Below are positions 6,001 to 62,632 of a stretch of DNA of 64,000 bases, in pieces. Below the pieces are notes generated by a model that worked only from the letters and a program-made list of their open reading frames with translations, made no database searches and was not told the origin of the DNA. The position numbers were made by a program, and so were the translations under genes. Each line of letters begins with the position of its first letter. Position 1 is the first letter of the stretch. This DNA comes from Candidatus Omnitrophota bacterium (GTDB lineage: Bacteria; Omnitrophota; Gorgyraeia; Aquiviventales; Aquiviventaceae): assembly GCA_016193195.1 (NCBI GenBank), contig JACPSQ010000086.1, positions 17,299 to 81,298 on the forward strand. The letters run 5' to 3'.

Positions 6001-6693
6001 ATGGAACTGAGCACCTACCGGGATATGCACCTCCTCGATGAGGTCACCCGGAATCCCACCGTGACCCAGCGAGAGCTCGCCAAGCGCATCGGGGTCGCCT
6101 TAGGCCTGGCCAACCTGATGCTGCGCCGCCTGACCAAGAAGGGCTACATCAAAATCAGCGGCACGAAGCGCAGCCGCATCCGCTACCTCATTACCCCGCA
6201 AGGCATCCTTGAGAAATCCCGCTTGACCTACGAGTTCGTCCAATATTCCCTCCAACTCTATCATCGCGTCCGCCATTTCTGGCGCGAGCAGCTGGCGACC
6301 ATCGCCCAAACCCCCCAGCGGCGGATCCTGCTCTTCGGCGCTGGCGAGCTGGCCGAGATCGCCTTCCTGACCATTCAGGAAATGGGCTTGGACTTCGTCG
6401 GCGTCGCCCAGGAGGCGGCCGATGAACGACGGTTTCTCGGCTATCCCGTTCAGGACATCCGCACGGTGGCACCGGACCGTTACGATTGGATGCTGGTCAC
6501 GGCCTTGCAGGACGACGGGTTGTCGACTCGCTTGCAGGAGCTGGGCGTGCCGCCGGAGCAGATGATCGTGTTGACCAGGCCAGGGCAGGCCAGGCCGGCC
6601 ATCGAGCGACGCAGCATCGAACAGATGGCCGTGGCCACCACGGCGCCCGTGCCGGTGCCGACGGCTCCCGTTGAAGCGGAGATCGCGGCATGA
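6001..6693 (+). CDS. Winged-helix transcriptional regulator with a C-terminal Rossmann-like domain
   Basis: The N-terminus TQRELAKRIGVALGLANLMLRRLTKKGYIK is an HTH. The C-terminal ILLFGAGELAEIAFL...DFVGV is a nucleotide-binding-like domain. It is the first gene of the plus-strand array. Confidence 0.55.
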   Translation: MELSTYRDMHLLDEVTRNPTVTQRELAKRIGVALGLANLMLRRLTKKGYIKISGTKRSRIRYLITPQGILEKSRLTYEFVQYSLQLYHRVRHFWREQLATIAQTPQRRILLFGAGELAEIAFLTIQEMGLDFVGVAQEAADERRFLGYPVQDIRTVAPDRYDWMLVTALQDDGLSTRLQELGVPPEQMIVLTRPGQARPAIERRSIEQMAVATTAPVPVPTAPVEAEIAA

Positions 6694-7256
6694 AACGCGC
6701 GGTGTTTCTGGATCGGGACGGCGTGCTCAATCAGGCGGTCGTGCGGGACGGCAAGCCATACGCGCCGGCCTCCCTGGAGGAGTTGGCGATCGTGCCCGAT
6801 GCCGCGGAGGCGATCACGACCTTGCGCCAGGCGGGGTTTCTCGCCATTGTCGTGACGAACCAACCCGATGTCGGCCGCGGCCTCCAACGCCGTGAGACGG
6901 TCGAAGCGATGCATCAGCGGCTCCGCGCGCAGCTGCCCATCGATGACATCCGGGTCTGTTATCACCGGGAGGAAGACGCCTGCGCGTGCCGGAAACCGAA
7001 ACCGGGGATGCTGCGCGACGCGGCCCGTGACTGGGATGTGGACCTGAGCCGCTCGATCATGGTGGGGGACCGGTGGCGGGACATCGAGGCGGGCAAAGCG
7101 GCCGGATGCCGCACGATTTTGGTGCGGAGCCCGTGGGCGGAGCAACAGGCCCAGGCTCCCGACGCGGTCGTGGCGTCCCTGCACGAAGCCAGCCGGCTGA
7201 TCCTGTCAGCGTGGATCAGCCGCCGACCCTACGGAGCAGCGCATGCCCAGGCTTGA
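6690..7256 (+). CDS. gmhB: D-glycero-D-manno-heptose 1,7-bisphosphate phosphatase-like HAD phosphatase (GmhB family)
   Basis: AVFLDRDGVLN (DxDGT motif I), VVTNQPDVGRG, and CYHREEDACACRKPKPGML (the GmhB zinc-binding cysteine loop plus KPxPGM). Confidence 0.8.
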   Translation: MKRAVFLDRDGVLNQAVVRDGKPYAPASLEELAIVPDAAEAITTLRQAGFLAIVVTNQPDVGRGLQRRETVEAMHQRLRAQLPIDDIRVCYHREEDACACRKPKPGMLRDAARDWDVDLSRSIMVGDRWRDIEAGKAAGCRTILVRSPWAEQQAQAPDAVVASLHEASRLILSAWISRRPYGAAHAQA

Positions 7257-8007
7257 GGAGTTACGGGTCAAGATCTTTGCGGACGGGGCGGACCTTGCGA
7301 CCATCGCGGAGCTCGCCAAGCATCCCTACATCAGGGGCTTCACAACCAACCCAACCCTGATGCGCAAGGCGGGTGTGCCGGACTACCGCCGGTTTGCTCG
7401 CGAGGTGCTGACGCTGGTGCCAGATCGCCCCGTGTCGTTTGAGGTCTTCTCGGATGATTTCCCCGAGATGGAACAGCAGGCGCTGGAGATCGCCTCGTGG
7501 GGCGACAATGTCTATGTCAAGATTCCGGTGACGAATACGCGCGGGGCGTTTTCCGGCCCGCTCATTAAGCGGCTCTCCGAAGCCGGCGTCAAGCTGAACG
7601 TGACCGCCCTGCTGACGAGCGAGCAGGTGGGCCGCGTCACCGACTGTTTCTCGCCGGGGAGGAGCAGCTTTATCTCGGTGTTCGCGGGACGGATCGCCGA
7701 CACCGGCCGCGACCCCGTGTCCCTCATGGCCGAGTCGCTGCGGCTGATGGCCAGCCGCCCACAGGCCGAGCTGATCTGGGCCAGCCCCCGCGAGCTGCTC
7801 AACGTGATCCAGGCTGACGCCATCGGCTGCCACATCATCACCGCCACCAGCGACATCTTGGCCAAGCTCTCCTTGATCGGGAAGGATCTGTCGGAACTCT
7901 CGTTGGACACGGTGCGGATGTTTCGGCAGGATGCGCTCCAGGCGGGTTTTACGATTGAGCTCAGCCAGGCCGAGGCGGTCGGCTCGGCGGCCGCCGCCCC
8001 GCGATGA
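7243..8007 (+). CDS. Transaldolase / fructose-6-phosphate aldolase family protein
   Basis: KIFADGADL...GFTTNPTL, VYVKIPVT, and the NVTALLT Schiff-base-lysine region are typical of TalC/FSA-type transaldolases. Confidence 0.75.
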   Translation: MPRLEELRVKIFADGADLATIAELAKHPYIRGFTTNPTLMRKAGVPDYRRFAREVLTLVPDRPVSFEVFSDDFPEMEQQALEIASWGDNVYVKIPVTNTRGAFSGPLIKRLSEAGVKLNVTALLTSEQVGRVTDCFSPGRSSFISVFAGRIADTGRDPVSLMAESLRLMASRPQAELIWASPRELLNVIQADAIGCHIITATSDILAKLSLIGKDLSELSLDTVRMFRQDALQAGFTIELSQAEAVGSAAAAPR

Positions 8008-9041
8008 AGCCGCCGTCTCCTCGACCGGTGCTGGTGACGGGCGGCGCCGGCTATGTCGGCTGCGTGCTCGTCCGAAAGCTGCTGGAGGCCGGCTACCCGG
8101 TGACCGTGTATGACCTGATGCTCTTCGGCGATGCGGGGTTGCCCACCCACGCCGCCCTGCGCGTCGTCAAGGGAGACATCCGCGATCTTCCGACGCTTGC
8201 CGCGGCGGTGCGGGGCGCGCACAGCGTGATTCATCTGGCCTGCATTTCCAACGACCCGAGTTTCGAATTGGATCCGGTGCTGGGCAAGTCGATCAACTAC
8301 GACAGCTTTGAGCCGTTGGTGCGGACCTGTAAAGCGGGTGGTGTGCGGCGATTTATCTATGCCTCCACCAGTTCGGTCTATGGGGTCAGCGACGCCCCGG
8401 ACGTCACCGAGGAACACCCCTTGGTGCCCTTGACGGATTACAATAAGTACAAGGGCTTGTGCGAGCCGATCCTCCTGCGCTACCAGTCGCCGGACTTTAC
8501 CACGGTGATCCTTCGGCCCGCCACGGTCTGCGGCCCTTCGCCGCGGATGCGCTTTGATCTGACCGTGAATATCCTCACCAACCATGCCGTGAATCGGCGT
8601 GTCATCACCGTCTTTGGCGGGACGCAGCGACGGCCGAACATCCATATCGAGGACATCGCCGAGCTCTACGTCAAGCTGCTGGAGTACCCGGACGGCTTGA
8701 TTGCCGGGGAGACCTTCAACGCTGGCTACCAGAATCACACCGTCGGCGAATTGGCTCACCTGGTCCGCCAGGTCGTCGAACAAGAGATGCCGCAGCCGGC
8801 ACCCATTCAGATCCAGACCAGCCCAACCGACGATCTCCGTTCCTACCATGTCTCATCCAGAAAAATCGCCGAGCGGCTTGGCTATGTTCCCGCGCGGACT
8901 ATTGAGGACGCCGTTCGCGATCTCTGTCGCGCCTTCACGGCAGGCAGGTTTCCCGACAGCCTGACCGATGAGCGGTACTTCAACGTGAAAGCGGTCAAGC
9001 GGATGACGCCCACCCTGCTCATGGAGCCGGTCGGCTCTTGA
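8004..9041 (+). CDS. NAD-dependent nucleotide-sugar epimerase/dehydratase (extended SDR)
   Basis: [15 protein letters not shown] Rossmann motif, with YASTSSVYG and YNKYKGLCE (YxxxK). Confidence 0.8.
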   Translation: MKPPSPRPVLVTGGAGYVGCVLVRKLLEAGYPVTVYDLMLFGDAGLPTHAALRVVKGDIRDLPTLAAAVRGAHSVIHLACISNDPSFELDPVLGKSINYDSFEPLVRTCKAGGVRRFIYASTSSVYGVSDAPDVTEEHPLVPLTDYNKYKGLCEPILLRYQSPDFTTVILRPATVCGPSPRMRFDLTVNILTNHAVNRRVITVFGGTQRRPNIHIEDIAELYVKLLEYPDGLIAGETFNAGYQNHTVGELAHLVRQVVEQEMPQPAPIQIQTSPTDDLRSYHVSSRKIAERLGYVPARTIEDAVRDLCRAFTAGRFPDSLTDERYFNVKAVKRMTPTLLMEPVGS

Positions 9042-10033
9042 TGCCGCAGCAGGTTGCAGTCGTGACTGGAGGGGCGGGGTTCATCGGCAGCCACATGGTG
9101 GACCTGCTGTTGGACCGCGGCTTCGACGTGCGAGCGATTGACAATCTTGCCTGCGGGCGTCGGGAAAACCTCGCGCACCAGAACGGCCACCCCCGCCCGG
9201 TGTTTGAGGCCCGGGATGTGCGGGACCTGCGTCCCGGCGACCCCTTGTTGGAGGGGGCCGACTATGTCTTCCATTTCGCGGGGATCGGAGACATCGTCCC
9301 GTCGATTGAGCGGCCGACCGAGTACCTGTCCTCCAATGTCATGGGCACGGTCTGCGCCCTCGAGGCGGCCCGGTGGGCGAAGGTGAAGAAGTTCATCTAT
9401 GCCGCCTCCTCCTCCTGCTACGGCCTGGCCACTGAGCTGCCGACCACGGAGCAGGCTCCCATCAGTCCTCAGTATCCCTACGCGCTGAGCAAGTACCTTG
9501 GCGAACAAGCCGTCATGCATTGGGGCAAGGTCTATCAGTTGCCGGTGATCTCCCTGCGCATCTTCAACGCCTATGGCCCGCGCTCGCGCACGACCGGCGC
9601 CTACGGCGCCGTCTTTGGAGTCTTCCTGGCGCAGAAGCTCGCCGGGAAGCCGTTCACGGTAGTAGGCGACGGAACGCAGCGTCGGGATTTCGTCTTTGTA
9701 ACCGATCTGGCAAAGGCGTTTCTACTCGCGGCTGAGTCCGATTGCACGCAAGACATCTTCAACGTCGGGGCTGGCCAGCCGCAGTCAGTGAATCGACTCG
9801 TGGAGCTGTTAGGCGGTGAAGTCGTCCATGTGCCCAAGCGCCCTGGAGAGCCGGATTGCACGTGGGCCGATACGACACGCATCCGGACAATGCTTGGATG
9901 GGTGCCGACGGTGTCGTTTGAAGCAGGCGTCAAGACCATGTTGGGCTCGATTGACGATTGGCGCGCCGCACCGGTGTGGGATGAGACGGCGATTGCAGAG
10001 GCAACGGCATCATGGTTCAAGTATCTGAAATAA
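9038..10033 (+). CDS. NAD-dependent nucleotide-sugar 4-epimerase-like (extended SDR)
   Basis: [23 protein letters not shown] and YALSKYLGE (YxxxK). The start overlaps the preceding stop (ATGA). Confidence 0.8.
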   Translation: MMPQQVAVVTGGAGFIGSHMVDLLLDRGFDVRAIDNLACGRRENLAHQNGHPRPVFEARDVRDLRPGDPLLEGADYVFHFAGIGDIVPSIERPTEYLSSNVMGTVCALEAARWAKVKKFIYAASSSCYGLATELPTTEQAPISPQYPYALSKYLGEQAVMHWGKVYQLPVISLRIFNAYGPRSRTTGAYGAVFGVFLAQKLAGKPFTVVGDGTQRRDFVFVTDLAKAFLLAAESDCTQDIFNVGAGQPQSVNRLVELLGGEVVHVPKRPGEPDCTWADTTRIRTMLGWVPTVSFEAGVKTMLGSIDDWRAAPVWDETAIAEATASWFKYLK

Positions 10034-11721
10034 CCGACGTCCGGTTGGAGAGTTCCCGCCCGGCTGTTGTCCTGGCGCTGCCGCTGAAGCGCGCGTTGGA
10101 GCGGTTGCTCCTGTGCAATCGGATCCGCGAGCTGGCGGACTACCGGATGACACCGGTGACGGTGAAGGATCTGCGCGGCATAGGAGGTCTCTTAGCATTC
10201 CTGGTTCGCGTGGTGGACCCATCCGGTATCCGGGCGCGTCGCTCCGGAGCGATTCAGCTTCTCATGGACGTCTGGATCATCATCACGCTCCGGCTGCTCC
10301 TGTTGTTCCGGAGGCATCGGATCGGGGAAGACCTGCGCTCGACCGTGGGTGTCCTCTGCCGAGCCGTGCTGTTCCGGCACCAGCGCTACGCGGCCCGTCC
10401 AACCACTGAGATGGTGCCGCACGTGCGGTGTTCCGAGAAGGAGGAGCTGTTGATCCGATCCTGCCTGTTGCTGCGCACCATGCAGCGGTACGGGCCATGC
10501 ATTGAATTCCTCATCCAGCGCCTCACCTCCGGGCTACCGGCTGCCGAGACGCGGCGATGGCTCGCCTTCTTCCTGCGTGAGATTGGGGATGACACCGCGG
10601 CTGACGCGTTGCTGACGATGGAGCCCGCGGCATCCGAAGCCACCGTCATCCACCACCTGGAAGTTCCAAAGCCTCCGGCGCAACATGCGCCGAGGCGACT
10701 CAAATACGGCCTGTACGTGATGACGGTGTTCGATTCGGACGTCTTCCGCAGCTCGCTGCTGAGCCTTATGAACAGTGATTACGACGGCCAGATCGTCGTG
10801 GCCGAAGACGGCTACCTTCCAAACAAGGTCTGCGAGGCATTTTGCCGGGAGGTCGGTGTTCCCTATATCAAGAACCCGGAGTGGACGTACACCCAGCCGT
10901 TGGCGAACCTGGCGATTCAGGCGTTTGATGAGGATACCGACATTCTGCTCCAGGCGCCGAACGACGTGCTCTGGCCCCCCCGCTGGTTTGGTCAACTTGA
11001 TGGGGCCTGGAAGCGGGTCTTTGACACTGGAAAGGTTGGTGGACTGACCATGAGTGCTGTGCAATTTGACGCCTCCGTGGAGCCTATGCTCAAAGAGGCG
11101 TTTGTGAGGGGGCGTTATGAAGGCCTGTTGTGGGTCTTAAAAATGCGGGCACAGGTTCACCCCTGGCTGGATTGGTATCGTGAAGCCCTGCCTCACGATG
11201 GGAGCCAGCTGTTTGGGTTGCCCAAGGATCTCTACACCGACGATGTGACCAGGCTCTTGTGGAAAGTTGCCTATGGAGGGGCGGTTTCGACCTTCTCCCG
11301 AACCCTCTGGACGGAAGTCAACAGGGTGCCATCACAGATGCGCGCCAATCTTGATCTGGAACTGGGCTACCAGTGTTGGACAAGCCGACGATGGTTCCTC
11401 GCCGTCAATAACACGCCTCTCATTCATATGATAGGACAGGATAGCCGTCGATTGACCGGCCGTGATAAGGTGCTTAAGGTGCGAGTGAAGGAAATGTTCA
11501 AGCAGGATGACGCGCTCTTCAGACAAAAGTACGGCGAGGACTGGTACCCACCCTATTGGTATTTTTCTGGCGAGAGCTGCATGATTTACCACGACGAGAT
11601 TCTGCGTGCGGTCAACGAGGGACGATTTGACGAGATCGACTTCGTGTTTGATGATTTCGAAGCCCGACGGAAGGGACGGTACTGGGCCTGTTCGCTCCCC
11701 TCGCTTTCACGCTCACAGTGA
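10012..11721 (+). CDS. Hypothetical protein (possible divergent GT-A-like domain)
   Basis: 569-aa ORF with no motif I can assign. The central YGLYVMTVFDSD...IVVAEDGY is faintly GT-A/DxD-like. The true start may be internal (ATG at 10147). Confidence 0.35.
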   Translation: MVQVSEITDVRLESSRPAVVLALPLKRALERLLLCNRIRELADYRMTPVTVKDLRGIGGLLAFLVRVVDPSGIRARRSGAIQLLMDVWIIITLRLLLLFRRHRIGEDLRSTVGVLCRAVLFRHQRYAARPTTEMVPHVRCSEKEELLIRSCLLLRTMQRYGPCIEFLIQRLTSGLPAAETRRWLAFFLREIGDDTAADALLTMEPAASEATVIHHLEVPKPPAQHAPRRLKYGLYVMTVFDSDVFRSSLLSLMNSDYDGQIVVAEDGYLPNKVCEAFCREVGVPYIKNPEWTYTQPLANLAIQAFDEDTDILLQAPNDVLWPPRWFGQLDGAWKRVFDTGKVGGLTMSAVQFDASVEPMLKEAFVRGRYEGLLWVLKMRAQVHPWLDWYREALPHDGSQLFGLPKDLYTDDVTRLLWKVAYGGAVSTFSRTLWTEVNRVPSQMRANLDLELGYQCWTSRRWFLAVNNTPLIHMIGQDSRRLTGRDKVLKVRVKEMFKQDDALFRQKYGEDWYPPYWYFSGESCMIYHDEILRAVNEGRFDEIDFVFDDFEARRKGRYWACSLPSLSRSQ

Positions 11722-11725: not shown

Positions 11726-13279
11726 ATGCCAGAGCTAACCACTGACGTGCGAACGAGCAGTCGTGAGCTCAAGTGTCTGGAGCTCGATCGATTGGCGGAG
11801 CATCTCGCACGCTTGCGAGGTGAGGGGAAGAAGATTGTCTTGTGTCACGGCGTATTCGACCTCCTCCACATCGGGCACGTTCGATATTTTCAACGCGCCA
11901 AGCAACTGGGTGACGTCCTGGTGGTGACGGTGACCCCCGATCGTTTTGTCAACAAAGGTCCCCAACGACCAGCCTTTTCTGAATCGCTGCGCATAGAAGC
12001 CCTTGCCGCACTGGAATGCGTCGACCATGTCGCCCTGAATCGGTGGCCGATGGCGGTGGAAACCATCCGCTTGCTGCAACCTCATGTCTATGTGAAGGGG
12101 CCGGATTACAAAGACCCTGACAACGATCACACAGGCGGGATTGTCCTTGAGGAGGCTGCTGTCAAATCCGTGAATGGACAGCTGGTGATTACCGATGACA
12201 TCACCTTCAGTGCTTCTCATCTGATCAATCGGCACCTGCCGTTGTTGTCCCAGGAAGCGACGCAGTTCCTTGAGCGTTTTTCATCCCGGTATACCTCAGC
12301 AGAGGTGCTTTGCTACCTGGAACAGGCACGTCCGCTGAAGGTCTTGGTTGTCGGAGAGGCCATCATCGACGAATATCAATACTGTGAATCTATTGGCAAA
12401 TCATCGAAGGAGCCAATGCTCGCCGTCAAGCGTCTTGCCATGGAACGGTTTGCCGGTGGGACCCTTGCGGTGGCCAACCACGTCGCGAACTTTTGCGATC
12501 AGCCGGGGCTCATCACCTTCCTTGGAGTGGATGATCCGAAGGAAACGTTCATTCGAGAGAAGCTGAATCCCAACGTCCAGCCGCGGTTTCTGTATCGGGC
12601 AGGCGCTCCCACGATTGTGAAACGCCGATTCATCGACCAGTATTTCTTTACGAAATTCCTGGAGGTGTATGAGATCAACGACGAGGCTTGGGACCCGCGT
12701 GATCATGACGTCTTGTGTGAGGAGTTGCGTACCCAAGTCCCGAACTACGATGTCGTGCTGGCCGTGGACTTTGGCCACGAGATGTTCAGTCGAGAGGCGA
12801 TTGATCTTGTCTGTGAGAAGGCAAAGTTCCTTGTCGTCAACACGCAGTGTAACGCTGGCAACCTCGGCTACCACTCCATCTCCAAGTATCCACGGGTGGA
12901 CTATGTCTGTCTGGCGGAGAGGGAGCTTCGGCTCGAGATGCGGGATCGTCGAGGGGATCTCAAGTCGTTGATTCAGCAGATTGCCCAGCGGCTTCGGTGT
13001 CCTGTGACGGCCACCCGCGGCGCCTATGGATGCCTCTCCTACAGTGAAAAGGATGGTTTTGTGGAGGTGCCGGCGTTCGCCAATCAGGTGGTGGACCGGA
13101 TGGGCGCCGGGGATACCTTTCTGTCGCTGGCGGCCCTGTGTGTCGCGGCGAAGGCGCCGCTTGAGATCGTCGGGTTCATCGGCAATGTCGCGGGAGCAGA
13201 AGCCGTCGCCACCGTGGGTCACCGCACGTCGATCGAGCGGGCGAGGTTCTTCAAGCACATTGAATCCTTACTCAAGTGA
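11726..13279 (+). CDS. Bifunctional heptose-1-P adenylyl(cytidylyl)transferase / PfkB sugar kinase with REVERSED HldE domain order
   Basis: N-terminal KKIVLCHGVFDLLHIGHVRYFQRAKQLGDVLVVTVTPD is the RfaE domain II (HxGH nucleotidyltransferase). The C-terminus carries the PfkB signature DRMGAGDTFLS. E. coli HldE has kinase first and transferase second. Confidence 0.75.
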   Translation: MPELTTDVRTSSRELKCLELDRLAEHLARLRGEGKKIVLCHGVFDLLHIGHVRYFQRAKQLGDVLVVTVTPDRFVNKGPQRPAFSESLRIEALAALECVDHVALNRWPMAVETIRLLQPHVYVKGPDYKDPDNDHTGGIVLEEAAVKSVNGQLVITDDITFSASHLINRHLPLLSQEATQFLERFSSRYTSAEVLCYLEQARPLKVLVVGEAIIDEYQYCESIGKSSKEPMLAVKRLAMERFAGGTLAVANHVANFCDQPGLITFLGVDDPKETFIREKLNPNVQPRFLYRAGAPTIVKRRFIDQYFFTKFLEVYEINDEAWDPRDHDVLCEELRTQVPNYDVVLAVDFGHEMFSREAIDLVCEKAKFLVVNTQCNAGNLGYHSISKYPRVDYVCLAERELRLEMRDRRGDLKSLIQQIAQRLRCPVTATRGAYGCLSYSEKDGFVEVPAFANQVVDRMGAGDTFLSLAALCVAAKAPLEIVGFIGNVAGAEAVATVGHRTSIERARFFKHIESLLK

Positions 13280-22389: not shown

Positions 22390-22390
22390 T

Positions 22391-28750: not shown

Positions 28751-28754
28751 CGCG

Positions 28755-30311: not shown

Positions 30312-30312
30312 C

Positions 30313-41019: not shown

Positions 41020-41022
41020 ACC

Positions 41023-41529: not shown

Positions 41530-41535
41530 CACCTC

Positions 41536-42204: not shown

Positions 42205-42217
42205 GGGGGTGGACGTC

Positions 42218-51713: not shown

Positions 51714-51917
51714 ATGCCCAAGTTTCTGAAAGGGAACTACCGGTTGCCGAAAGGCAAGGCCACACTAGCAAGGAAACAGGCGCGCAAGGATCTGACCCAG
51801 CAATTCGAGGAACGCGCGCTGGCGAAGCTGGGAGGAAGCCTCTGCTTCGTCATGAAGAAAGGGACGTTCGTCTGGACCGACGAGGCTGATGAAGGCGCTC
51901 GCCAAGCATCTGGTTGA
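51714..51917 (+). CDS. Small basic hypothetical protein (67 aa)
   Basis: A strong Shine-Dalgarno (AAAGGAGG, 51697-51704) lies 9 nt upstream of the ATG. The N-terminus is Lys/Arg-rich. No known domain. Confidence 0.3.
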   Translation: MPKFLKGNYRLPKGKATLARKQARKDLTQQFEERALAKLGGSLCFVMKKGTFVWTDEADEGARQASG

Positions 51918-52914: not shown

Positions 52915-52917
52915 GCC

Positions 52918-56403: not shown

Positions 56404-57269
56404 GCATTCGCATCATTCCGCGGCTGGATATCAAGGGTCCAAACCTGGTCAAGGGCATCCACTTGGAGGGGCTGCGCGTCCTGGGAAAACCCGAGCGGTT
56501 CGCCAGGTCCTACTACGAGCAGGGGGCTGATGAGCTCCTCTACATGGATGTGGTGGCGAGTCTCTATGGGCGCAACAGCCTGCTGGAGATCGTGCGGCGA
56601 ACGGCGCAGGAGATCTTTATCCCGCTGACCGTGGGAGGCGGCTTGAGGAGCCTTGAGGACATCATGGCCGTCTTGCGGGCCGGCGCTGACAAGGTCTCGC
56701 TCAACACCGCCGCGGTTGGCAACCCTGAGTTCATCCGGACGGCCTCGCGGCGGTTCGGGTCTTCCACCATCGTGGTCTCGATCGAGGCGATCCGGCAACC
56801 CGACGGGCGCTACCAGGCCTACACGGACAACGGGCGCCAGACGACCGGGCTGGATGCGGTGCAGTGGGCCATCCAAGCCGCCGAGCTGGGGGCCGGAGAG
56901 CTCCTGGTGACGTCGATTGACCGCGAAGGCACCGGCAAGGGGTTCGATCTTGAGCTGACGCGGCGAATCGCCGAGTCGGTGCCGATTCCTGTCATCGCCT
57001 GCGGAGGGGCGGGAACCGTGGAACACGTGGTGGAGGTCATCCGCGAGGGCCGGGCGGATGCCGTGTGCCTGGCTTCGATGTTGCACTACGCCTTCATCCG
57101 TGACGACCCCGGCACGGACGATTTTTCTACGGAGGGCAACACGGAATACCTGAAGACGCGCGGCAAGCTCTCGAGGATCCACGAGGCGAAGTTGCCCCAG
57201 ATCAAGGCGGCGCTGCCGGCGCGGGGCGTCCCGTGCCGCCCGGCCGCGGAAGCCGCTGTCCATGTCTGA
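56400..57269 (+). CDS. Imidazole-glycerol-phosphate synthase cyclase-like subunit (HisF paralog, WbuZ/PseA-system)
   Basis: RIIPRLDIKGPNLVKG...VGGGL... is the HisF fold. Confidence 0.8.
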   Translation: MSIRIIPRLDIKGPNLVKGIHLEGLRVLGKPERFARSYYEQGADELLYMDVVASLYGRNSLLEIVRRTAQEIFIPLTVGGGLRSLEDIMAVLRAGADKVSLNTAAVGNPEFIRTASRRFGSSTIVVSIEAIRQPDGRYQAYTDNGRQTTGLDAVQWAIQAAELGAGELLVTSIDREGTGKGFDLELTRRIAESVPIPVIACGGAGTVEHVVEVIREGRADAVCLASMLHYAFIRDDPGTDDFSTEGNTEYLKTRGKLSRIHEAKLPQIKAALPARGVPCRPAAEAAVHV

Positions 57270-57951
57270 GACCAAGCCGACGCGTGTGGCGATCGTGGAC
57301 TACGGAATGGGGAATCTATTCAGCGTCCAGCAGGCGTGCGCGCAGGCGGGGCTGGCCGCCGCGGTCACGGCGGAGCCGCAGACGGTGCTGGAGACGGATG
57401 CCGTGATCCTGCCCGGCGTGGGTGCATTCGGCGACGCCATGGCCGAGCTGACCCGTCGGGATCTCGTCGTCCCGCTGCGGGACGCCGTCGCCTCCGGCAA
57501 GCCGCTCCTAGGTATCTGCCTCGGGATGCAACTGCTGATGAGCGAGAGTCACGAGTTCGGACGACACCGAGGCCTGAACATCATCGAAGGTGAGGTGGTG
57601 CGCCTCCCGGTCAGCGCGGAGGAGCCGCCGCGGAGGGTCAAGGTACCTGAAGTGGGCTGGAATCCGGTGTGGCCTGTTCGGGAGGACGCGTGGGTGGGGA
57701 GCTTGCTGGAGGGTATCCCGGCGGGTGCGTGCATGTATTTTGTCCACTCCTACTACGTTCGTCCTGTGGATGCTACGCTAATCCTCTCCACGACGACCTA
57801 TGGACCGATCACCTATTGCTCGAGTCTGCAGTTTGGAAACGTCTTCGGCTGTCAGTTTCACCCTGAGCGGAGCGGCCCGGCGGGGTTGAAGATCTACCGG
57901 AATCTGGCCACCAGGCTGGGACGGCTGTATGCGGAGGTTGAGCGGTCATGA
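57262..57951 (+). CDS. Glutamine amidotransferase subunit (HisH paralog, WbuY-like)
   Basis: VAIVDYGMGNLFS...LPGVGAFG...GICLGMQLL is a class I GATase. Confidence 0.8.
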   Translation: MSETKPTRVAIVDYGMGNLFSVQQACAQAGLAAAVTAEPQTVLETDAVILPGVGAFGDAMAELTRRDLVVPLRDAVASGKPLLGICLGMQLLMSESHEFGRHRGLNIIEGEVVRLPVSAEEPPRRVKVPEVGWNPVWPVREDAWVGSLLEGIPAGACMYFVHSYYVRPVDATLILSTTTYGPITYCSSLQFGNVFGCQFHPERSGPAGLKIYRNLATRLGRLYAEVERS

Positions 57952-59180
57952 GCCTTGCGACGGCAGCGGGGAGGGAGGAGGCGCTCGAGTCGAAGTACGG
58001 GCTGCCACGCCAGGTCGTGTTCTGCAGGCGATGTGTCATGTCGAATCAGCGTCCCTGTTCTTCAATCGAATTCCTCCACACGAACACCCACAAGCATCGG
58101 CACCTCCACATTGATGAAGCAGGCGTCTGCGATGCCTGCCGGATGGCTGGGCAAAAAGAGCAGATTGACTGGAACCAGCGCGAGCAGGAGCTGCGGCAAC
58201 TCCTCGACCAGCACCGCCGGAGCGATGGAGAGTACGACTGCCTCGTGCCGGGCAGCGGTGGGAAGGACAGCTGCTATGCGGCGCACATCTTGAAGTACCG
58301 CTACGGCATGCACCCACTGACCGTGACGTGGCCCCCAGGCCTCTACACCGACATCGGCTTGAAGAACTTCCATAGCTGGATCACCGTGGGGGCGTTCGAC
58401 AACGTGACCTTCAGGCCCAATGGCCGCGTTCATGCGCTGTTAACCCGCCTCTCGATTGAGAACCTTCTCAACCCGTTCCAGACGTTCGTCCTCGGCCAGA
58501 AGAACCTTGCGCCGAAGGTGACGATGCGCTACGGGATCAAGCTGATCTTCTACGGCGAGAACGAGGCGGAGTACGGCAACCCGATCGCAGACAACACCAG
58601 CTCCCTGCGTGATCGGGCCTACTACGCGTTCAACGATCTCTCGCGGGTCCACCTCGGGGGCGTGTCGGTGCCGGAGTTGCGGGAGCGCTACGGCCTGACG
58701 CTCAACGATCTGCTGCCCTATCTGCCGGCGGACCCTCTCGAGCTTGAGCGCTCAGGGATTGAGGTGCGGTACCTCGGCTACTACCTGAAGTGGACGCCGC
58801 AGGAAGCCTACTACTACGCCGTCGAGCACTGTGGCTTTGAGGCGAATCCCTTTCGGACGGAAGGCACGTACAGCAAGTACAACAGCCTTGACGACAAGGC
58901 GGACGGGCTCCACTACTACACGGCCTACATCAAGTTCGGGCTTGGACGGGCCAGCTCCGACGCCTCGCAGGAGATCCGCAACAAGCACCTCACGCGCGAG
59001 GAGGGGGTCGCCCTTGTGCGCCGGTTCGACGGGGAATTTCCGGAGCGCTATTTCCGCGAAGTAATGGAGTCTATTGGGATGGCGCCGGAGCAGTTCCTCG
59101 AGTTGTGCGACGAATTTCGCTCACCCCATCTGTGGCGGAAGGAGGGTAACACATGGCAGCTTCGCCACCAGGTCTCCTAG
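57948..59180 (+). CDS. N-acetyl sugar amidotransferase (WbuX/WbpG/PseA-like, PP-loop)
   Basis: An N-terminal Cys-rich region (CRRCVMSN...GVCDACR) and the PP-loop LVPGSGGKDSCYAAH. Confidence 0.8.
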   Translation: MSLATAAGREEALESKYGLPRQVVFCRRCVMSNQRPCSSIEFLHTNTHKHRHLHIDEAGVCDACRMAGQKEQIDWNQREQELRQLLDQHRRSDGEYDCLVPGSGGKDSCYAAHILKYRYGMHPLTVTWPPGLYTDIGLKNFHSWITVGAFDNVTFRPNGRVHALLTRLSIENLLNPFQTFVLGQKNLAPKVTMRYGIKLIFYGENEAEYGNPIADNTSSLRDRAYYAFNDLSRVHLGGVSVPELRERYGLTLNDLLPYLPADPLELERSGIEVRYLGYYLKWTPQEAYYYAVEHCGFEANPFRTEGTYSKYNSLDDKADGLHYYTAYIKFGLGRASSDASQEIRNKHLTREEGVALVRRFDGEFPERYFREVMESIGMAPEQFLELCDEFRSPHLWRKEGNTWQLRHQVS

Positions 59181-59204
59181 CAGGCTGCGGAAATACTCGG
59201 CTCA

Positions 59205-59313
59205 CACCACAGATGACACAGAATGTCCACAGAAGCACAGAGCATTGCTCGTCGAGAACCCCTCTGTGGCTCTGTGGCGTTTCTGTGGTTTTGTGGTGTC
59301 ATCTGGGGTTTTT
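59205..59313 (+). terminator. Long imperfect hairpin followed by a T-run (candidate intrinsic terminator / structured RNA)
   Basis: CACCACAGATGACACAG (59205-59221) pairs with TGTGGTGTCATCTGGGG (59293-59308). An inner stem CCACAGAAGCACAGAG pairs with CTCTGTGGCTCTGTGG. TTTTT follows at 59309-59313. Confidence 0.45.
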
Positions 59314-59341
59314 CAGCACCCTGCTAGACTAACACCGTGCG

Positions 59342-60430
59342 ATGCACACGGACCTGACGACGTTCTGCGTCAAGGCCACGGACCCGCTCCGGGCGGTCGT
59401 GGCCCAGATGGATCGCAATCGCCTGGGCATCGCCCTGGTCATCGATGAAGCGCGGCGGCTGGTTGGCGCGGTCACCGATGGGGACGTCCGCCGTGCGATC
59501 CTGAGCCGGTTGGAGTTCGAGCGGCCTGTTGAAACCCTGCTGGCCCGGAAGGCGGGAACCGCCCATGCGAAGCCGATCACAGCGCGCCAAGGTGCCGATC
59601 GGCAGACGCTGCTCAACGTGCTGCAACAGCATCGGATTCTGCACCTGCCCCTCGTGGATGAACAGCAGCACGTCGTAGGACTGGTGACGCTGGATGAGTT
59701 TGTGCCGGAGAAGGCGTTGCCGATTCAAGCGGTGGTGATGGCGGGGGGGAAGGGGAGCCGCCTGCATCCCCTGACCAACGAGTTGCCCAAGCCGATGTTG
59801 CGGGTGGGCGACCGGCCGGTGTTGGAGATCATCATCGGGCAGTTGCGCGAAGCCGGCATCCGCCAGGTCAAGGTGACGACGCACCATAAGACGGAGAAAA
59901 TCGCCGGGCATTTCGGTGACGGGAATCGTTTTGGGGTGGAGCTCTCCTATGTGGAAGAAGATCATCCCCTGGGCACGGTCGGCGGGCTGGGCCTCTTGGA
60001 GGTTCCAAAAGAGACGACCCTGGTGATCAACGGCGACATCCTGACACGAGTGGATTTCCGGGCGATGCTCCTCTACCACCGAGAGCACCAGGCCGATCTG
60101 ACCGTCGCCGTCCGTCAATACGATGTGAGGGTCCCCTACGGGGTCGTCGAATGTGAGGGGCCAAACGTGCGCAAGATCAGCGAGAAACCCGCCCTCATCT
60201 TGTTTATCAACGCGGGGGTCTATCTGCTTGAACCGGCTGTCTACCAGTATATCCCGAACGGCCAGCGCCTTGACATGACTGACCTGATCCAGCGGCTCCT
60301 CAGCGAGGGGCGAAGCGTCGTGAGCTTTCCGATCCGGGAGTATTGGCTTGATATCGGGCAACGTGAAGACTACGAGCAGGCGCAGGCCGACGTCAAGGAG
60401 TGGGCCGTGGCCAAGCAGGTGACAGGATGA
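59342..60430 (+). CDS. CBS-pair + sugar-1-phosphate nucleotidyltransferase (PtmE-like)
   Basis: N-terminal tandem CBS motifs. AVVMAGGKGSRLHPLTNELPKPML is the NTP_transferase G-loop. Confidence 0.75.
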   Translation: MHTDLTTFCVKATDPLRAVVAQMDRNRLGIALVIDEARRLVGAVTDGDVRRAILSRLEFERPVETLLARKAGTAHAKPITARQGADRQTLLNVLQQHRILHLPLVDEQQHVVGLVTLDEFVPEKALPIQAVVMAGGKGSRLHPLTNELPKPMLRVGDRPVLEIIIGQLREAGIRQVKVTTHHKTEKIAGHFGDGNRFGVELSYVEEDHPLGTVGGLGLLEVPKETTLVINGDILTRVDFRAMLLYHREHQADLTVAVRQYDVRVPYGVVECEGPNVRKISEKPALILFINAGVYLLEPAVYQYIPNGQRLDMTDLIQRLLSEGRSVVSFPIREYWLDIGQREDYEQAQADVKEWAVAKQVTG

Positions 60431-61413
60431 GTCTGTGGACAGGCAAGGCGGTGCTGGTTACGGGAGCGGGTGGATTCATCGGCAGCCACCTGGCCGAGCG
60501 GCTGGTCGAGCTAGGCGCCTACGTCAAGGCCCTGGTCCGCTATCGCTCCAACGGTTCATGGGGTTGGCTGGATCAGATACCGGCGAGAGAGGCAGTTGAG
60601 GTTATTGCAGGCGACCTCTGCGATCGAGAGAGCGTCAGGCAAGCCCTGAAAGGCGCGCAGGTAGTCTTCCACCTCGCCGCGTTCATCGCCATCCCGTATT
60701 CGTACCAGGTCCCCGAGACCTTCGTCCTGGTTAACATCGGGGGGACGCTGAACCTCCTGCAGGCCGCGCGCGACTACGGGGTGGAGCGATTCATCCACAC
60801 CTCCACCAGCGAGGTGTACGGGACCGCCCGCAACGTGCCGATTGACGAATCCCACCCGCTCCAGGCCCAATCACCCTATGCGGCGTCCAAGATCGCCACG
60901 GACAAACTGGTCGAATCCTTCCATCTGTCCTTCGATCTGCCCACCGTGACGGTGCGGCCGTTTAATACGTTTGGCCCCCGACAGTCGGCTCGTGCGATTG
61001 TGCCGACGATCATCACGCAGTGCTTGACCGACACGACCGTGCGCGTCGGCAACCTGACGCCGACCCGTGATATGAATTACGTGAGCGACATCGTCCAGGG
61101 GTTTGTGCGAGCGGCCGAATGTCCCGAAGCGATTGGCCGGACCTTCAACCTCGGCTCAGGGCGCGAAACCAGCATGGCTGATCTCGTGGGCTTGATCGCC
61201 GCCCTGATGGGCAAGTCGCCGGCGATGGCGGTGGAAGACAGCCGGATCCGTCCGGCCCACAGTGAAGTGGAGCGGCTGGTCGCCGACAGCACCGCCGCTC
61301 GAGCGGTCCTGGGATGGGAACCGATCGTGTCGCTTGAAGAAGGGATCCGACTCACGTTCGAGTGGATTCAGGAGCATCTGGATGCCTACCGTCCGGGCAT
61401 GTACGTCCTCTGA
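60427..61413 (+). CDS. NAD-dependent nucleotide-sugar epimerase/dehydratase (LegB/PseB-like candidate)
   Basis: VLVTGAGGFIGSH, HTSTSEVYG and YAASKIATD (YxxxK). ATGA-coupled. Confidence 0.8.
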   Translation: MSLWTGKAVLVTGAGGFIGSHLAERLVELGAYVKALVRYRSNGSWGWLDQIPAREAVEVIAGDLCDRESVRQALKGAQVVFHLAAFIAIPYSYQVPETFVLVNIGGTLNLLQAARDYGVERFIHTSTSEVYGTARNVPIDESHPLQAQSPYAASKIATDKLVESFHLSFDLPTVTVRPFNTFGPRQSARAIVPTIITQCLTDTTVRVGNLTPTRDMNYVSDIVQGFVRAAECPEAIGRTFNLGSGRETSMADLVGLIAALMGKSPAMAVEDSRIRPAHSEVERLVADSTAARAVLGWEPIVSLEEGIRLTFEWIQEHLDAYRPGMYVL

Positions 61414-62632
61414 GCCTCGGGAGGGTACGAAGGGGCGGTGGATTCCGCTGAGCGAGCCGCATCTCGCCGGCAACGAGTGGAGGTATCTCAAGGAGTGCCT
61501 GGACAGCGGCTGGATCTCATCGGCCGGGCCGTTTGTGGAGCGGTTTGAGCAAGCGTTTACCACATACATCAGGGACGGCCGACCGGGAACCCCTGCCGTC
61601 GGAGTCGTCAACGGCACCGCAGGTTTGCATGTAGCACTGCGCGCCGCGCTGGTACAGCCTGATGATGAAGTGCTGGTGCCAACGCTGACCTTTATTGCGC
61701 CGGTCAACGCGATCCGTTATTGCCAGGCGCATCCGGTCTTCATCGATGCGGATCCGCTGACGTGGCAGATTGACGTGAAGCAGGTGGAAGCATTTCTCGA
61801 ACGCGAGTGCGAGGTGAGGCCGGATGTTCCGGGCCCGGGCGTATCGACCAAGACATGTTGGAACAAGCGGACAAAGCGGTGCGTGCGGGCGATCATCCCG
61901 GTACACCTGCTGGGTTTGGCTTGCGATATGGAGCCGCTGATGGCGCTGGCCAGGCGATACCATTTGCGCGTTGTTGAGGACGCCTGCGAAGCGATCGGAG
62001 TGCGTTATGGTCCTTTTCATGTTGGCACACGGGGCCACCTGGGGGTCTTTAGCTTTAACGGGAATAAGACGCTGACGTGCGGCGGCGGGGGGATGGTGGT
62101 GGCGCGCAAGCCATACGCCGACTATGTGCGATACCTGACGACCCAGGCGCGGGATGGTTCGCGGGAATATTATCATCAGGAAATTGGCTACAACTATCGG
62201 CTGACGAACCTGCACGCGGCGATTGGCTTGGCGCAACTGGAGCAGGCGGAGCGGTTGCTGGCGCGCAAACGAGCCATCGCCGCGGCGTACGAACAGGCCC
62301 TGCGCGACGTCGACGGGATCACGCTGATGCCGGCGCCTCCGCACACCGAGCCTGGCTATTGGCTGTACACCATCCTCCTGAGGGAAGGCACGACGGTGGC
62401 TCAGCGCAACGCCGTGCTGGATCGGTTGGCCGCGGAAGATATCGAGGCGCGGCCGTTGTGGCAACCAATCCACACGCAGCCGCCCTACCAGGGCTGCCAA
62501 CGCGCCGGCTCGATGACGGTGGCCAACGACGTGTACGAGCGGGCCGTGAGCCTCCCAAGCAGCGTCGGATTGAACATGGTGGAGCTTGAGCGGTGCGTTG
62601 AGGTCGTTCGCCGGCTTCTTGCAGGAGCATGA
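61382..62632 (+). CDS. DegT/DnrJ/EryC1-family sugar aminotransferase
   Basis: WIPLSEPHLAGNEWRYLKECLDSGWISS is the canonical DegT N-terminus. The only in-frame start upstream is ATG 61382, which overlaps the previous gene by 32 nt. Confidence 0.8.
   Translation: MPTVRACTSSEPREGTKGRWIPLSEPHLAGNEWRYLKECLDSGWISSAGPFVERFEQAFTTYIRDGRPGTPAVGVVNGTAGLHVALRAALVQPDDEVLVPTLTFIAPVNAIRYCQAHPVFIDADPLTWQIDVKQVEAFLERECEVRPDVPGPGVSTKTCWNKRTKRCVRAIIPVHLLGLACDMEPLMALARRYHLRVVEDACEAIGVRYGPFHVGTRGHLGVFSFNGNKTLTCGGGGMVVARKPYADYVRYLTTQARDGSREYYHQEIGYNYRLTNLHAAIGLAQLEQAERLLARKRAIAAAYEQALRDVDGITLMPAPPHTEPGYWLYTILLREGTTVAQRNAVLDRLAAEDIEARPLWQPIHTQPPYQGCQRAGSMTVANDVYERAVSLPSSVGLNMVELERCVEVVRRLLAGA

Follow-up and report, generated by a model that had tools for sequence, protein, structure and literature searches.

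The gene array analysed here, which lies in a 64,000-nucleotide stretch of DNA from an uncultivated Candidatus Omnitrophota bacterium (contig JACPSQ010000086.1, positions 17,299 to 81,298; hereafter the window), is a mosaic and not one exotic pathway: four or more cassettes make it up, and each of them also turns up on its own elsewhere. Judging from its sequence, it is probably a cell-surface glycan island assembled from recurrent cassettes that makes C-branched, C-methylated, nucleoside diphosphate (NDP)-activated heptose-like sugars together with 5-acetamidino-7-acetamido-legionaminic acid (Leg5Am7Ac). Part of it is ordinary, namely a legionaminic acid (Leg) pathway, and part is probably new enzymology; the whole is not categorically new.

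The gene inventory was based on a mechanical list of open reading frames (ORFs), Pfam scans of about 60 ORFs and NCBIfam scans with curated cut-offs, against which bit scores are quoted below. Genes are named g1 to g56 in their order along the array, and L-numbers (L008, L014, L096 and so on) denote related loci outside the window. About 57 intact genes, all on the + strand and densely packed, occupy positions 6001-63710. Most junctions are 4-nt stop/start overlaps; gaps of more than 20 nt number only four, one of them holding a 67-codon ORF. Every enzyme class named in an earlier sequence-only reading of this DNA was recovered on the + strand in intact ORFs (Pfam, NCBIfam). Its co-directional array at 6001-62632 was also recovered except for the end, since the array runs on to 63710 and is then followed by an IS1595 remnant. 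The class of short-chain dehydrogenase/reductase (SDR), epimerase and dehydrogenase genes, previously put at about 12, has 15 members: 11 SDR-type genes, one zinc-dependent alcohol dehydrogenase (Zn-ADH), two GFO oxidoreductases and one NDP-sugar dehydrogenase. There are two DegT aminotransferases, acyltransferases of GNAT, formyltransferase-like, PglD-like and LbH types and, besides a 3-C-methyltransferase homologue, three S-adenosylmethionine (SAM) methyltransferases (starting at 24914, 28088 and 38687). No pseudogene-like gene was seen. The CxxxCxxC motifs of the radical-SAM enzymes and the motifs for thiamine diphosphate (ThDP) are intact; decay of the ThDP and radical-SAM genes, which had been raised as a possible objection, is not apparent.

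The ThDP enzymes of the array are encoded by three gene pairs:

13276..15323, + strand: g8 and g9, stand-alone E1 alpha/beta (Pfam E1_dh; Transket_pyr and Transketolase_C)
23170-24917, + strand: g17 and g18, split transketolase (TK)-like pair 1, non-canonical (Pfam)
33458-35223, + strand: g27 and g28, split TK-like pair 2, non-canonical (Pfam)

The best curated models for g8 and g9 are pyruvate dehydrogenase (PDH) E1 alpha (297 bits versus 394) and E1 beta (316 versus 321), and the ThDP motif GDA...NN is present in E1 alpha. No E2 or E3 gene was found in the window or in related E1-bearing loci (L014, L015, L101 and L102 among them). At the gene level the pair thus has the features of an alpha-KADH2-type enzyme: a heteromeric E1 with its ThDP motif, no E2/E3 and SDR neighbours. 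Its orthologues adjoin HldE-like genes in L014, L018, L028, L101 and L102 and are also found in L015 and L020.

Both TK-like pairs were aligned with E. coli TktA, whose residue numbers are used here. The cofactor and catalytic residues H26, H66, H100, D155, N185, E411 and H473 are kept in both, and the ThDP motifs are intact (GDG/GDA...N(N) in pair 1; Mg-binding Asp and Asn aligned in pair 2). The phosphosugar-binding residues and D469 compare as follows:

TktA R358, phosphate binding: kept in g17/g18; kept in g27/g28, the only phosphate residue retained
TktA S385, phosphate binding: F in g17/g18; A in g27/g28
TktA H461, phosphate binding: G in g17/g18; G in g27/g28
TktA R520, phosphate binding: S in g17/g18; K in g27/g28
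TktA D469, invariant, reads the acceptor C2-OH: L in g17/g18; L in g27/g28

The split TK of Carboxydothermus hydrogenoformans (6YAJ), solved and active, retains the His and the Asp, whereas the TK-like pairs do not (6YAJ ...THAGLTVGEDGASHQ versus g18 ...TIGSAFDYSNLGCTHH). Because phosphosugar-binding residues are lost, the pairs are unlikely to be pentose-phosphate enzymes, and their sequences mark them as predicted ThDP carboligases with a different acceptor. A role as suppliers of sedoheptulose-7-phosphate was considered and down-weighted for the same reason. The sequence-only reading had counted nine C-C bond-forming activities; the genes are all there, the activities are family-level predictions and the transketolases are non-canonical.

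Branching of keto sugars is known for YerE-like enzymes (in lipopolysaccharide, LPS) and for E1 alpha/beta enzymes of the alpha-KADH2 type (in antibiotics), according to a 2025 review (PMC12247030; see also PMC4753412). Branching by split-gene TKs has only been proposed, and the 13 predicted candidates are all streptomycete (PMC12247030). In two of the related loci, from a Chlamydiae metagenome-assembled genome (MAG; L014, 14682-16490) and a Leptospira MAG (L015, 1809-3581), an acetohydroxyacid synthase (AHAS)/YerE-type ThDP enzyme is added to E1 alpha/beta, which places two ThDP carboligase families in one sugar cluster.

The first of these ThDP pairs and the first TK-like pair are embedded in cassette A (6.7-28.7 kb), among genes for sugar activation and tailoring; a sugar-phosphate isomerase gene (g40) that fits the same route lies further along:

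6690-7256, + strand: g2, GmhB-like HAD-IIIA phosphatase (TIGR01656, 142 bits versus 84)
7243-8007, + strand: g3, short-type transaldolase (TIGR02134, 337 bits versus 282; equivalog passed)
8004..10033, + strand: g4 and g5, extended SDRs with epimerase/reductase-type motifs, conserved core (Pfam Epimerase/GDP_Man_Dehyd)
10012..11721, + strand: g6, 569 aa, no recognisable family (no Pfam, NCBIfam or PDB match)
11726..13279, + strand: g7, HldE-like bifunctional enzyme (Pfam CTP_transf_like and PfkB)
15325..17480, + strand: g10 (first), dTDP-glucose 4,6-dehydratase-like SDR (TIGR01181, 188 bits versus 365), and g11 (second), Zn-ADH, with orthologues adjoining split TK genes in L009, L021 and L024
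17459..21152, + strand: g12 (first), classical SDR (Pfam), and g14 (last), classical SDR with acetoin/butanediol-dehydrogenase-like matches (Pfam)
21118-22389, + strand: g15, NDP-sugar 3-C-methyltransferase homologue of TylCIII/TcaB9 type (Pfam Methyltransf_13, a Zn domain, and Methyltransf_23)
21118..23173, + strand: g16 (second), classical SDR
from 24914, + strand: g19, SAM methyltransferase (Pfam)
within 24914..28750, + strand: g21, RmlD-like 4-ketoreductase (Pfam)
28088-28750, + strand: g22, SAM methyltransferase (Pfam)
46628..47218, + strand: g40, GmhA-like SIS-domain sugar-phosphate isomerase (Pfam SIS_2)

At the centre of the cassette, g7 has a domain order reversed with respect to HldE, the nucleotidyltransferase being N-terminal and the PfkB kinase C-terminal. 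Its best PDB matches are the heptose-7-phosphate kinase HldA (4E84) and a putative cytidylyltransferase (5X9Q), while its scores for rfaE domain II (102 bits) and domain I (93 bits) are both under cut-off. Neither g7 nor its paralogue g23 reaches the HldE equivalog model (NF008454, 148 and 141 bits versus 521), and the HldE domain models give 93-132 bits versus 345 and 87-102 versus 181.5. The homology to HldE/HldA/HldC is genuine, yet neither protein is an equivalog. The same pattern holds for g2 against the heptose-1,7-bisphosphate phosphatase model (NF006506, 136 bits, under the cut-off of 178) and for g40 against the GmhA models (54-64 bits versus cut-offs of 209-320). Homologues of g7 number over 6,000; the top 120 share 60-67% identity with it, and their named sources include Omnitrophota, Elusimicrobia and Acidobacteria.

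Orthologues of g4 and g5 (57-67% identity) flank HldE-like genes in L008, L009, L014, L028 and L096; g10 has RmlB-type dehydratases as its best PDB matches and orthologues of about 60% identity in L008, L009 and L014; g19 and g22 have orthologues (41-59%) in L008, L009, L014 and L020. Residues 28-391 of the 422 of g15 align to 4RV9 (MtmC), 3NDI and 5T64 (phmmer E 3e-19 to 1e-14), the full-length alignment partners being MtmC, TcaB9 and KijD1, solved sugar 3-C-methyltransferases; of the family's domains PF08421 and PF13489 were found, and the C-terminal sugar-binding PF08484 was undetected at E <= 1e-5. In L008 and L101 the gene right after the HldE-like one is a SIS gene; in L096 SIS is found a short way downstream of the HldE-like gene, with a transaldolase gene behind it. 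The 569-aa g6 is not conserved in related loci.

We then compared the surroundings of these genes across genomes. The genes g5, g7, g4 and g10 (about 60% identity) form the unchanging part of six independent outside contexts of g7, and in five of the six a ThDP gene adjoins the g7-type gene (L008 being the exception): E1 alpha/beta in L014, L018, L101 and L102, directly downstream of the HldE-like gene in L102, and split TK with Zn-ADH in L009. L014 (Chlamydiae MAG JACOUC010000035) has g5, g7, g4, g8, g9, g10, g12, g13, g14, g22 and g11 at 43-64% identity. In this locus the g10 orthologue seems to be in three pieces around an inserted DUF1016/YhcG-type nuclease gene (5809-9162), and a second YhcG-like gene lies further along the cluster. 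The gene order g5-like, g23, g24, g25 of the next cassette recurs in L096 (43-63% identity), and g4-like, g5-like, g23 and g24 recur in L028. In L096 the g23-type block is followed by SIS, transaldolase and NeuB and preceded by an ATP-binding cassette (ABC) exporter, a small ORF, DUF115, a cobalamin (B12) radical-SAM gene of g47 type and a TIGR04372 glycosyltransferase, with HldE-like, GFO and NDP-sugar dehydrogenase genes in between, so that the window is not alone in linking these cassettes.

The ThDP and radical-SAM genes are not chance companions. In Chlamydiota, Elusimicrobiota, Leptospira, other Omnitrophota and unassigned metagenome contigs they again accompany the same nucleotide-sugar genes, and this speaks for real roles in sugar modification. 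Known clusters had been said not to combine such genes. This stands for the characterised literature searched, in which we found no relevant report joining transketolase and radical SAM with legionaminic acid, transketolase with nonulosonic acid or with heptose and O-antigen, or cobalamin radical SAM with nucleotide sugars, and nothing relevant on Omnitrophota with legionaminic acid or on Leptospira rfb with transketolase; it does not stand for metagenomes, as L096 illustrates. Base composition varies along the array (GC 0.54-0.71), and this unevenness within a co-directional array fits a build-up from cassettes of differing history. GC is 0.69-0.71 at 48000-52000, around the LegF/PtmA/LegI genes, and 0.55 at 28000-30000, around the second HldE-like gene.

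These data bear on two other explanations. According to the first, which we regard as unlikely, ordinary pathways merely lie side by side: conventional sugars (ADP/NDP-heptose, uronic acid, amino sugar, Leg) would be made for one heteropolysaccharide, transaldolase and TKs would raise the sedoheptulose-7-phosphate supply of two heptose pathways, and E1 and radical-SAM enzymes would act on non-sugar substrates, for example in acyl decorations. In its favour, HldE-like genes are present twice, along with SIS, a GmhB-like HAD and a transaldolase that scores above its equivalog cut-off; split TKs can be genuine metabolic enzymes (6YAJ), GC is mosaic, and every cassette is found separately elsewhere, the Leg part being fully conventional. 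However, both TK-like pairs are without the phosphosugar-binding His, Asp and Arg, E1 has no accompanying E2/E3 gene, and a TcaB9-like sugar C-methyltransferase stands in the same block. Moreover, the genes for TK and E1 stand interspersed among NDP-sugar SDRs and are syntenic across phyla, which is not expected for precursor supply. As a description of the array, separate and already characterised pathways that are merely adjacent apply to about a quarter of it (47.2-62.6 kb) and probably not to the ThDP/radical-SAM cassettes.

The second explanation, distinctly improbable in our view, makes chain builders of the same enzymes: E1 alpha/beta (1-deoxyxylulose-5-phosphate synthase (DXS)-like, with pyruvate as donor), the TK-like pairs and transaldolase would build C8-C10, possibly 1-deoxy, ketose phosphates, to be activated by SIS, HldE-like enzyme and HAD. 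Lincomycin biosynthesis, where LmbR, LmbN, LmbP, LmbK and LmbO build a GDP-octose, is the model for it. A dedicated transaldolase adjoins HAD in the window or SIS in L096, E1 alpha/beta directly follows the HldE-like gene in L102, genes for kinase, phosphatase, isomerase and nucleotidyltransferase are all present, and the sub-cut-off scores of the HldE/GmhA/GmhB models would fit a non-heptose substrate. Yet the TK-like proteins are without the phosphate-binding residues needed for phosphosugar acceptors, the dehydratase- and ketoreductase-like SDRs conserved beside E1 fit keto-sugar branching, and characterised E1 alpha/beta sugar enzymes use NDP-keto sugars (PMC12247030). Branching of keto sugars by the ThDP enzymes remains the preferred interpretation.

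The second group of unusual enzymes comprises three B12-binding radical-SAM proteins:

18307-20346, + strand: g13, 679 aa, B12-binding radical-SAM (Pfam; CPFTCTFC motif)
25612-27207, + strand: g20, B12-binding radical-SAM 2 (Pfam; CVLRCSFC motif)
52918-54522, + strand: g47, B12-binding radical-SAM 3 (Pfam; CSLICRFC motif)

All three have the class B architecture, with PF02310 N-terminal to PF04055 and its CxxxCxxC. They are mutually very divergent, the sole pairwise match being between g20 and g47 (22% identity). The KedN5-family C-methyltransferase model gives g13 148 bits, far under the cut-off of 700, and the HpnJ model gives g20 124 bits, also far under cut-off; the best named matches of g47 are models of C-methyltransferases of ribosomally synthesised and post-translationally modified peptides (RiPPs), at about 10% of their cut-offs. 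There are 1,606 homologues of g13 across many phyla. Its orthologues (at least 45% identity) keep an SDR-rSAM-SDR order, often near E1 alpha/beta, and the very order g12-g13-g14 is kept in L014, L016, L019 and L020. Distant relatives (28-40% identity) adjoin NeuB/CMP-synthetase or split TK genes in many metagenome loci; a scan of a genome collection with g13 returned only three relatives, all distant (32-39%).

For g47, which has roughly 1,450 homologues, the best 120 are unusually well conserved (62-84% identical), with Omnitrophota, Rokubacteria, Chloroflexota/Dehalococcoidia and Elusimicrobia as named sources, and g47-type genes adjoin nonulosonic-acid/NeuB genes in all five loci compared (the window and four outside). 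In the window they are part of a three-gene unit:

51714-51917, + strand: 67-codon ORF with a GGAGG ribosome-binding site, overlapping the g46 start (read from the sequence; missed by the sequence-only reading)
51889..54522, + strand: g46, MptE-like/DUF115 protein (Pfam), before g47

The small ORF, of 65-85 aa and with the pattern M..FLKGNY...AL.KLGGS..FV.K...W, is conserved in all five loci, each time directly upstream of, and overlapping, a DUF115 or B12 radical-SAM gene; its outside homologues are:

L096, 8781-8987
L097, 8807-9004
L099, 9730-9951
L100, 8693-8950

A DUF115/MptE-like protein is present in four of these five loci. The unit was previously unnoted and has no described function in the literature searched. 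A profile of the g46 family matches archaeal MptE at 6e-10 and the Maf structure 5MU5 at only 0.005 over 57 positions; a single-sequence AlphaFold2 model of g46 reached a mean predicted confidence (pLDDT) of 37 and was unusable. Identification of g46 as a Maf flagellin glycosyltransferase was rejected, given that the single sequence has no Maf match, that the profile value for 5MU5 is 0.005 and that the window has no flagellar genes. In one of the loci (L099, Chloroflexota MAG JAYZWH010000070, 8948-11611) a NusG-family paralogue of 207 aa lies directly upstream of the small ORF, the B12 radical-SAM gene, NeuB and NeuC, which hints at RfaH-like antitermination control of that operon.

The unit sits within a stretch, 47.2-62.6 kb, whose other genes are familiar:

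47229..51697, + strand: g41, LbH acetyltransferase with a GlmU-like role; g42, PtmF-like GFO oxidoreductase; g44, PtmA-like SDR (all Pfam, NCBIfam)
47229..51697, + strand: g43, LegF-like CMP-sugar synthetase (CTP_transf_3; PseF model 137 bits versus 206)
50636-51697, + strand: g45, NeuB/LegI (TIGR03569, 460 bits versus 400)
54519..62632, + strand: LegG hydrolysing 2-epimerase (TIGR03568, 440 bits versus 236)
54519..62632, + strand: LegH, PglD-like (TIGR03570, 211 bits versus 161)
54519..62632, + strand: LegB 4,6-dehydratase (TIGR04180, 427 bits versus 475; just under cut-off and by far the best match)
54519..62632, + strand: LegC aminotransferase (TIGR04181, 428 bits versus 420)
54519..62632, + strand: PtmE, CBS and nucleoside triphosphate (NTP) transferase domains (Pfam)
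56400-59180, + strand: WbuX, HisH and WbuZ (HisF-like) acetamidino trio (WbuX, TIGR03573, 338 bits versus 203; HisH, class I glutamine amidotransferase (GATase))

Gene starts in 54519..62632 were taken from L011. The trio is of the known WbuX/WbuY/WbuZ type, and its three genes are mutually adjacent, WbuZ/HisF-like scoring near its cut-off (TIGR03572, 271 bits versus 300), and a syntenic trio occurs in L072 at 52-68% identity. The gene content of this stretch matches the Leg region of P. shigelloides in a tabulation of Leg gene sets for Plesiomonas, Vibrio and Campylobacter (Table 5 of PMC4481668). PgmL was not found in the window; homologues of all other enzymes of the GDP route are encoded in one block. 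This part of the array is accordingly the predicted CMP-legionaminic acid pathway by way of GDP-GlcNAc, with WbuX/HisH/WbuZ, an assignment by homology above or near curated cut-offs, at which level Leg, 4-epi-Leg and 8-epi-Leg are not separated. As the pathway is a characterised one, NeuB is ordinary here and not one of the unusual C-C enzymes. In L102 (1419-4217 and 385-1446), another g7-type locus, the gene after NeuB encodes a 932-aa protein in which an AMP-binding (adenylating) domain and an aminotransferase domain are fused; nonulosonic acids might receive unusual N-acyl groups in this way.

The small ORF and the radical-SAM genes also invite a different interpretation, namely that the array makes a secreted specialised metabolite (for instance aminoglycoside- or nucleoside-like) or a glycopeptide, in which a 67-aa precursor would be glycosylated by DUF115, methylated by B12 radical SAM and exported by the ABC protein. 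The sugar pathways of actinomycete antibiotics characteristically use E1 alpha/beta, split TK, TcaB9-like and class B radical-SAM enzymes (PMC12247030). The array encodes a MarR regulator and a fused ABC exporter together with few glycosyltransferases, g47 has RiPP C-methyltransferase models as best named matches, and the small ORF always adjoins g47-type genes. Against this, the RiPP models score at about 10% of their cut-offs, the small protein is without recognisable leader/core features, and genes for an aglycone, polyketide synthase (PKS), non-ribosomal peptide synthetase (NRPS) or cyclitol are absent. Acetamidino-bearing CMP-Leg is a usual component of surface glycans, relatives adjoin Wzx or Wzm/Wzt-type transporters, and an Arn-like set (PMT_2 GT-C, UXS-like, formyltransferase-like, deacetylase) flanks the array. 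We consider a secreted product very improbable and a surface glycan the better destination. Attachment to flagellin, which had been proposed alongside LPS and capsule, finds no pointer in the window: it has no flagellin or flagellar genes, and DUF115 is not demonstrably Maf.

Between cassette A and the Leg genes lie cassette B (28.7-37.3 kb), which includes the second TK-like pair, and a middle block:

28755..33454, + strand: g23 (first), second HldE-like gene, 30% identical to g7 (Pfam, NCBIfam)
within 28755..33454, + strand: g24, GFO oxidoreductase (Pfam, NCBIfam)
within 28755..33454, + strand: g25, NDP-sugar 6-dehydrogenase (TIGR03026, 228 bits versus 190)
28755..33454, + strand: g26 (last), SDR (Pfam, NCBIfam)
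35220-36188, + strand: g29, SDR (Pfam)
ending at 37309, + strand: g30, UDP-galactopyranose-mutase (UGM)-like flavoenzyme (TIGR00031, 91 bits versus 304)
37320-38165, + strand: g31, 2-oxoglutarate (2OG)-Fe(II) oxygenase (TIGR04324, 297 bits versus 150)
ending at 38601, + strand: g32, LIC12192-family protein (TIGR04323, 140 bits versus 55), overlapping g31
from 38687, + strand: g33, FkbM methyltransferase (Pfam)
39784-41019, + strand: g34, SPASM/twitch radical-SAM (CNFRCVMC motif)
within 38687..43438, + strand: g35, PseH-like GNAT, and g36, formyltransferase-like (Pfam, NCBIfam)
42218-43438, + strand: g37, DegT aminotransferase (Pfam, NCBIfam)
43455..46627, + strand: g38 (first), TIGR04372-family glycosyltransferase (203 bits versus 45)
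44843-46627, + strand: g39, fused ABC exporter of MsbA/PglK-type architecture (Pfam ABC_membrane and ABC_tran)

Adjacent and both above cut-offs, g31 and g32 form the pair that defines Haft's 'sporadic carbohydrate cluster'. Homologues of g38 and g39 adjoin the small-ORF/DUF115/radical-SAM unit in L096.

The two ends of the array are marked by genes of other kinds:

6001..6693, + strand: g1, HTH/MarR-type regulator, first gene of the array (Pfam HTH_24/MarR)
62733..63710, + strand: g56, 325 aa, last gene of the array, no family match, with a low GC of about 0.54 (0.58-0.71 elsewhere)

The regulator resembles the exopolysaccharide (EPS)-associated MarR family (TIGR04176 MarR_EPS, 66 bits, under the cut-off of 88), and an HTH_24 gene is likewise first in L100. 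For g6, g56 and the 67-codon ORF no match was found in Pfam, NCBIfam or the PDB, relaxed thresholds included. Behind g56 a Zn_ribbon_IS1595 fragment (63775-63879) is broken by a stop. In L012 and L013 a DDE_Tnp_IS1595 gene comes further on, and short-read assemblies break at the IS1595 element. The g56/IS1595 region thus suggests a mobile-element boundary of the island. The left flank, at 116-5836, is reminiscent of Arn-type sets for lipid A/glycan modification: it encodes a PMT_2 membrane protein of GT-C type and, at 1891-2898, a UXS/ArnA-like decarboxylase; its - strand carries a GT4 gene, a formyltransferase-like gene and a polysaccharide deacetylase. No Rfam families (cobalamin, thiamine pyrophosphate (TPP) and SAM riboswitches included) and no tRNA genes were found in the window.

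Several observations weigh against branched and C-methylated heptose-like sugars. All of g7, g23, SIS and HAD score under the curated ADP-heptose cut-offs, so the sugar may not be a heptose, and SIS is missing near the g7 homologues of L009, L014 and L102. In g10 the sequence reads SPE at the position of RmlB's TDE, and its dehydratase activity is therefore not assured. The best named models for g13, g20 and g47 give 85-148 bits versus cut-offs of 578-750 (10-25%), and members of the B12 radical-SAM class also catalyse non-methylating chemistry. Among seven metagenome loci that are 6 kb or longer and carry a g13 orthologue, only two show E1 alpha/beta, and the co-occurrence counts rest on few long loci. 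Accessory genes vary among the loci, which means that the product here is not readable from relatives. Finally, recognisable glycosyltransferases are few relative to the number of sugar pathways. By analogy with characterised systems, putative branched, C-methylated sugars are nevertheless the best chemical reading of the ThDP and radical-SAM genes. The earlier idea of a hyper-modified sugar keeps its branched and C-methylated part, while a mosaic array makes several sugars likelier than a single one.

The route that we propose for these sugars would begin in cassette A with a ketose phosphate, either sedoheptulose-7-phosphate or a longer one obtained via transaldolase, which may simply feed or build this precursor. 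Once SIS has isomerised the ketose phosphate, the reversed HldE-like enzyme would phosphorylate and nucleotidylate it and the GmhB-like HAD would remove phosphate, giving an NDP-heptose-like product, and the three conserved extended SDRs would convert this into a keto/deoxy NDP-sugar intermediate. With pyruvate, E1 alpha/beta could then place a two-carbon acetyl branch on the ketone, by analogy with AviB1/B2 and KbDH-type enzymes, and the TK-like pairs could transfer a hydroxyacetyl unit onto a non-phosphorylated acceptor, for example a keto NDP-sugar. Classical SDRs or Zn-ADH would reduce the branches, the TcaB9-like enzyme would C-methylate next to the keto group, the B12 radical-SAM enzymes would methylate unactivated carbons, and the SAM methyltransferases would O- or N-methylate. 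Cassette B would yield a second HldE-activated sugar, oxidised by GFO and NDP-sugar dehydrogenase and possibly ring-contracted by the UGM-like enzyme, and the middle block would provide an N-acylated amino sugar, the TIGR04372 glycosyltransferase and the ABC exporter. The right block would make CMP-5-acetamidino-7-acetamido-legionaminic acid by the GDP-GlcNAc route, to be further modified or transferred by the small-protein/DUF115/B12 radical-SAM unit. An MsbA/PglK-like exporter together with few glycosyltransferases suggests that the final form is either a short glycan linked to lipid or a decoration attached to protein or lipid.

It is conceivable, if somewhat doubtful, that two uncharacterised, phylum-spanning systems are jointly represented here. 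In one, an HldE-like NDP-sugar would be C-branched or chain-extended by E1 and phosphate-blind split TKs and then C-methylated by B12 radical-SAM enzymes for the envelopes of Omnitrophota, Chlamydiota, Elusimicrobiota and Leptospira, a use of antibiotic-style chemistry for branched, higher-carbon sugars; in the other, the 67-aa/DUF115/B12 radical-SAM unit would modify or transfer legionaminic acid in a new way. Should the proposed chemistry hold, ThDP carboligases of the E1 alpha/beta and TK types, until now linked to the antibiotics of actinomycetes, would be in wide use for building envelope sugars in uncultivated and host-associated phyla, and the tailoring of surface glycans, nonulosonic acids included, would routinely involve cobalamin radical-SAM enzymes. 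The range of chemistry known from bacterial glycans, which serve as antigens, phage receptors and immune ligands (heptose metabolites, for example), would be wider, and new biocatalysts for the synthesis of tertiary-alcohol and C-methyl sugars would be at hand. Of practical value now are defined conserved cassettes with many orthologues that are expressible and assayable.

Compared with known systems, the Leg block is a familiar part of the array and has, PgmL apart, homologues of the same gene set in one block as the LegB/C/H/G/I/F and PtmA/E/F genes of Campylobacter jejuni and the clusters of P. shigelloides and V. fischeri. Unlike these, it has the small ORF, DUF115 and B12 radical-SAM unit between LegI and LegG, has no flagellin or Maf genes and lies within a 57-kb array of unrelated sugar cassettes. 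As in Haft's cluster and the TIGR04372 families, which are named and uncharacterised, g31, g32 and g38 score well above cut-offs; unlike elsewhere, g31 and g32 sit between cassette B and a set for an N-acyl amino sugar.

GenK, Fom3 and the KedN5 family are class B radical-SAM methyltransferases that act on sugars or small molecules. With them the array's enzymes share the B12 domain and the radical-SAM core with CxxxCxxC, but the three copies here are unrelated in sequence and score very low for all named families. The genes of kinase, nucleotidyltransferase, SIS and HAD type recall the ADP- and GDP-heptose pathways (GmhA, HldE or HldA/HldC, GmhB), and the 4,6-dehydratase-like and epimerase/reductase SDRs recall the tailoring of 6-deoxyheptose in C. 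jejuni and Burkholderia. Differences from the ADP-heptose pathway are the reversed domain order, the sub-equivalog scores, the two paralogues (30% identical), the dedicated transaldolase and the systematic association of the array's HldE-like genes with ThDP and B12 radical-SAM genes.

Among ThDP branching enzymes, YerE makes the branch of yersiniose in LPS, AviB1/B2, the aldgamycin enzymes and KbDH belong to the E1 alpha/beta type, and split TKs have been proposed for miharamycin and amipurimycin. Like the genes of the alpha-KADH2 and split-TK systems, the ThDP genes of the array adjoin dehydratase-like and ketoreductase-like SDRs and a sugar C-methyltransferase homologue. In contrast to the antibiotic systems, the clusters that hold them, in Omnitrophota, Chlamydiota, Elusimicrobiota and Leptospira, are of surface-glycan type, and the ThDP genes are coupled to HldE-like activation instead of dTDP/CDP-hexose genes.

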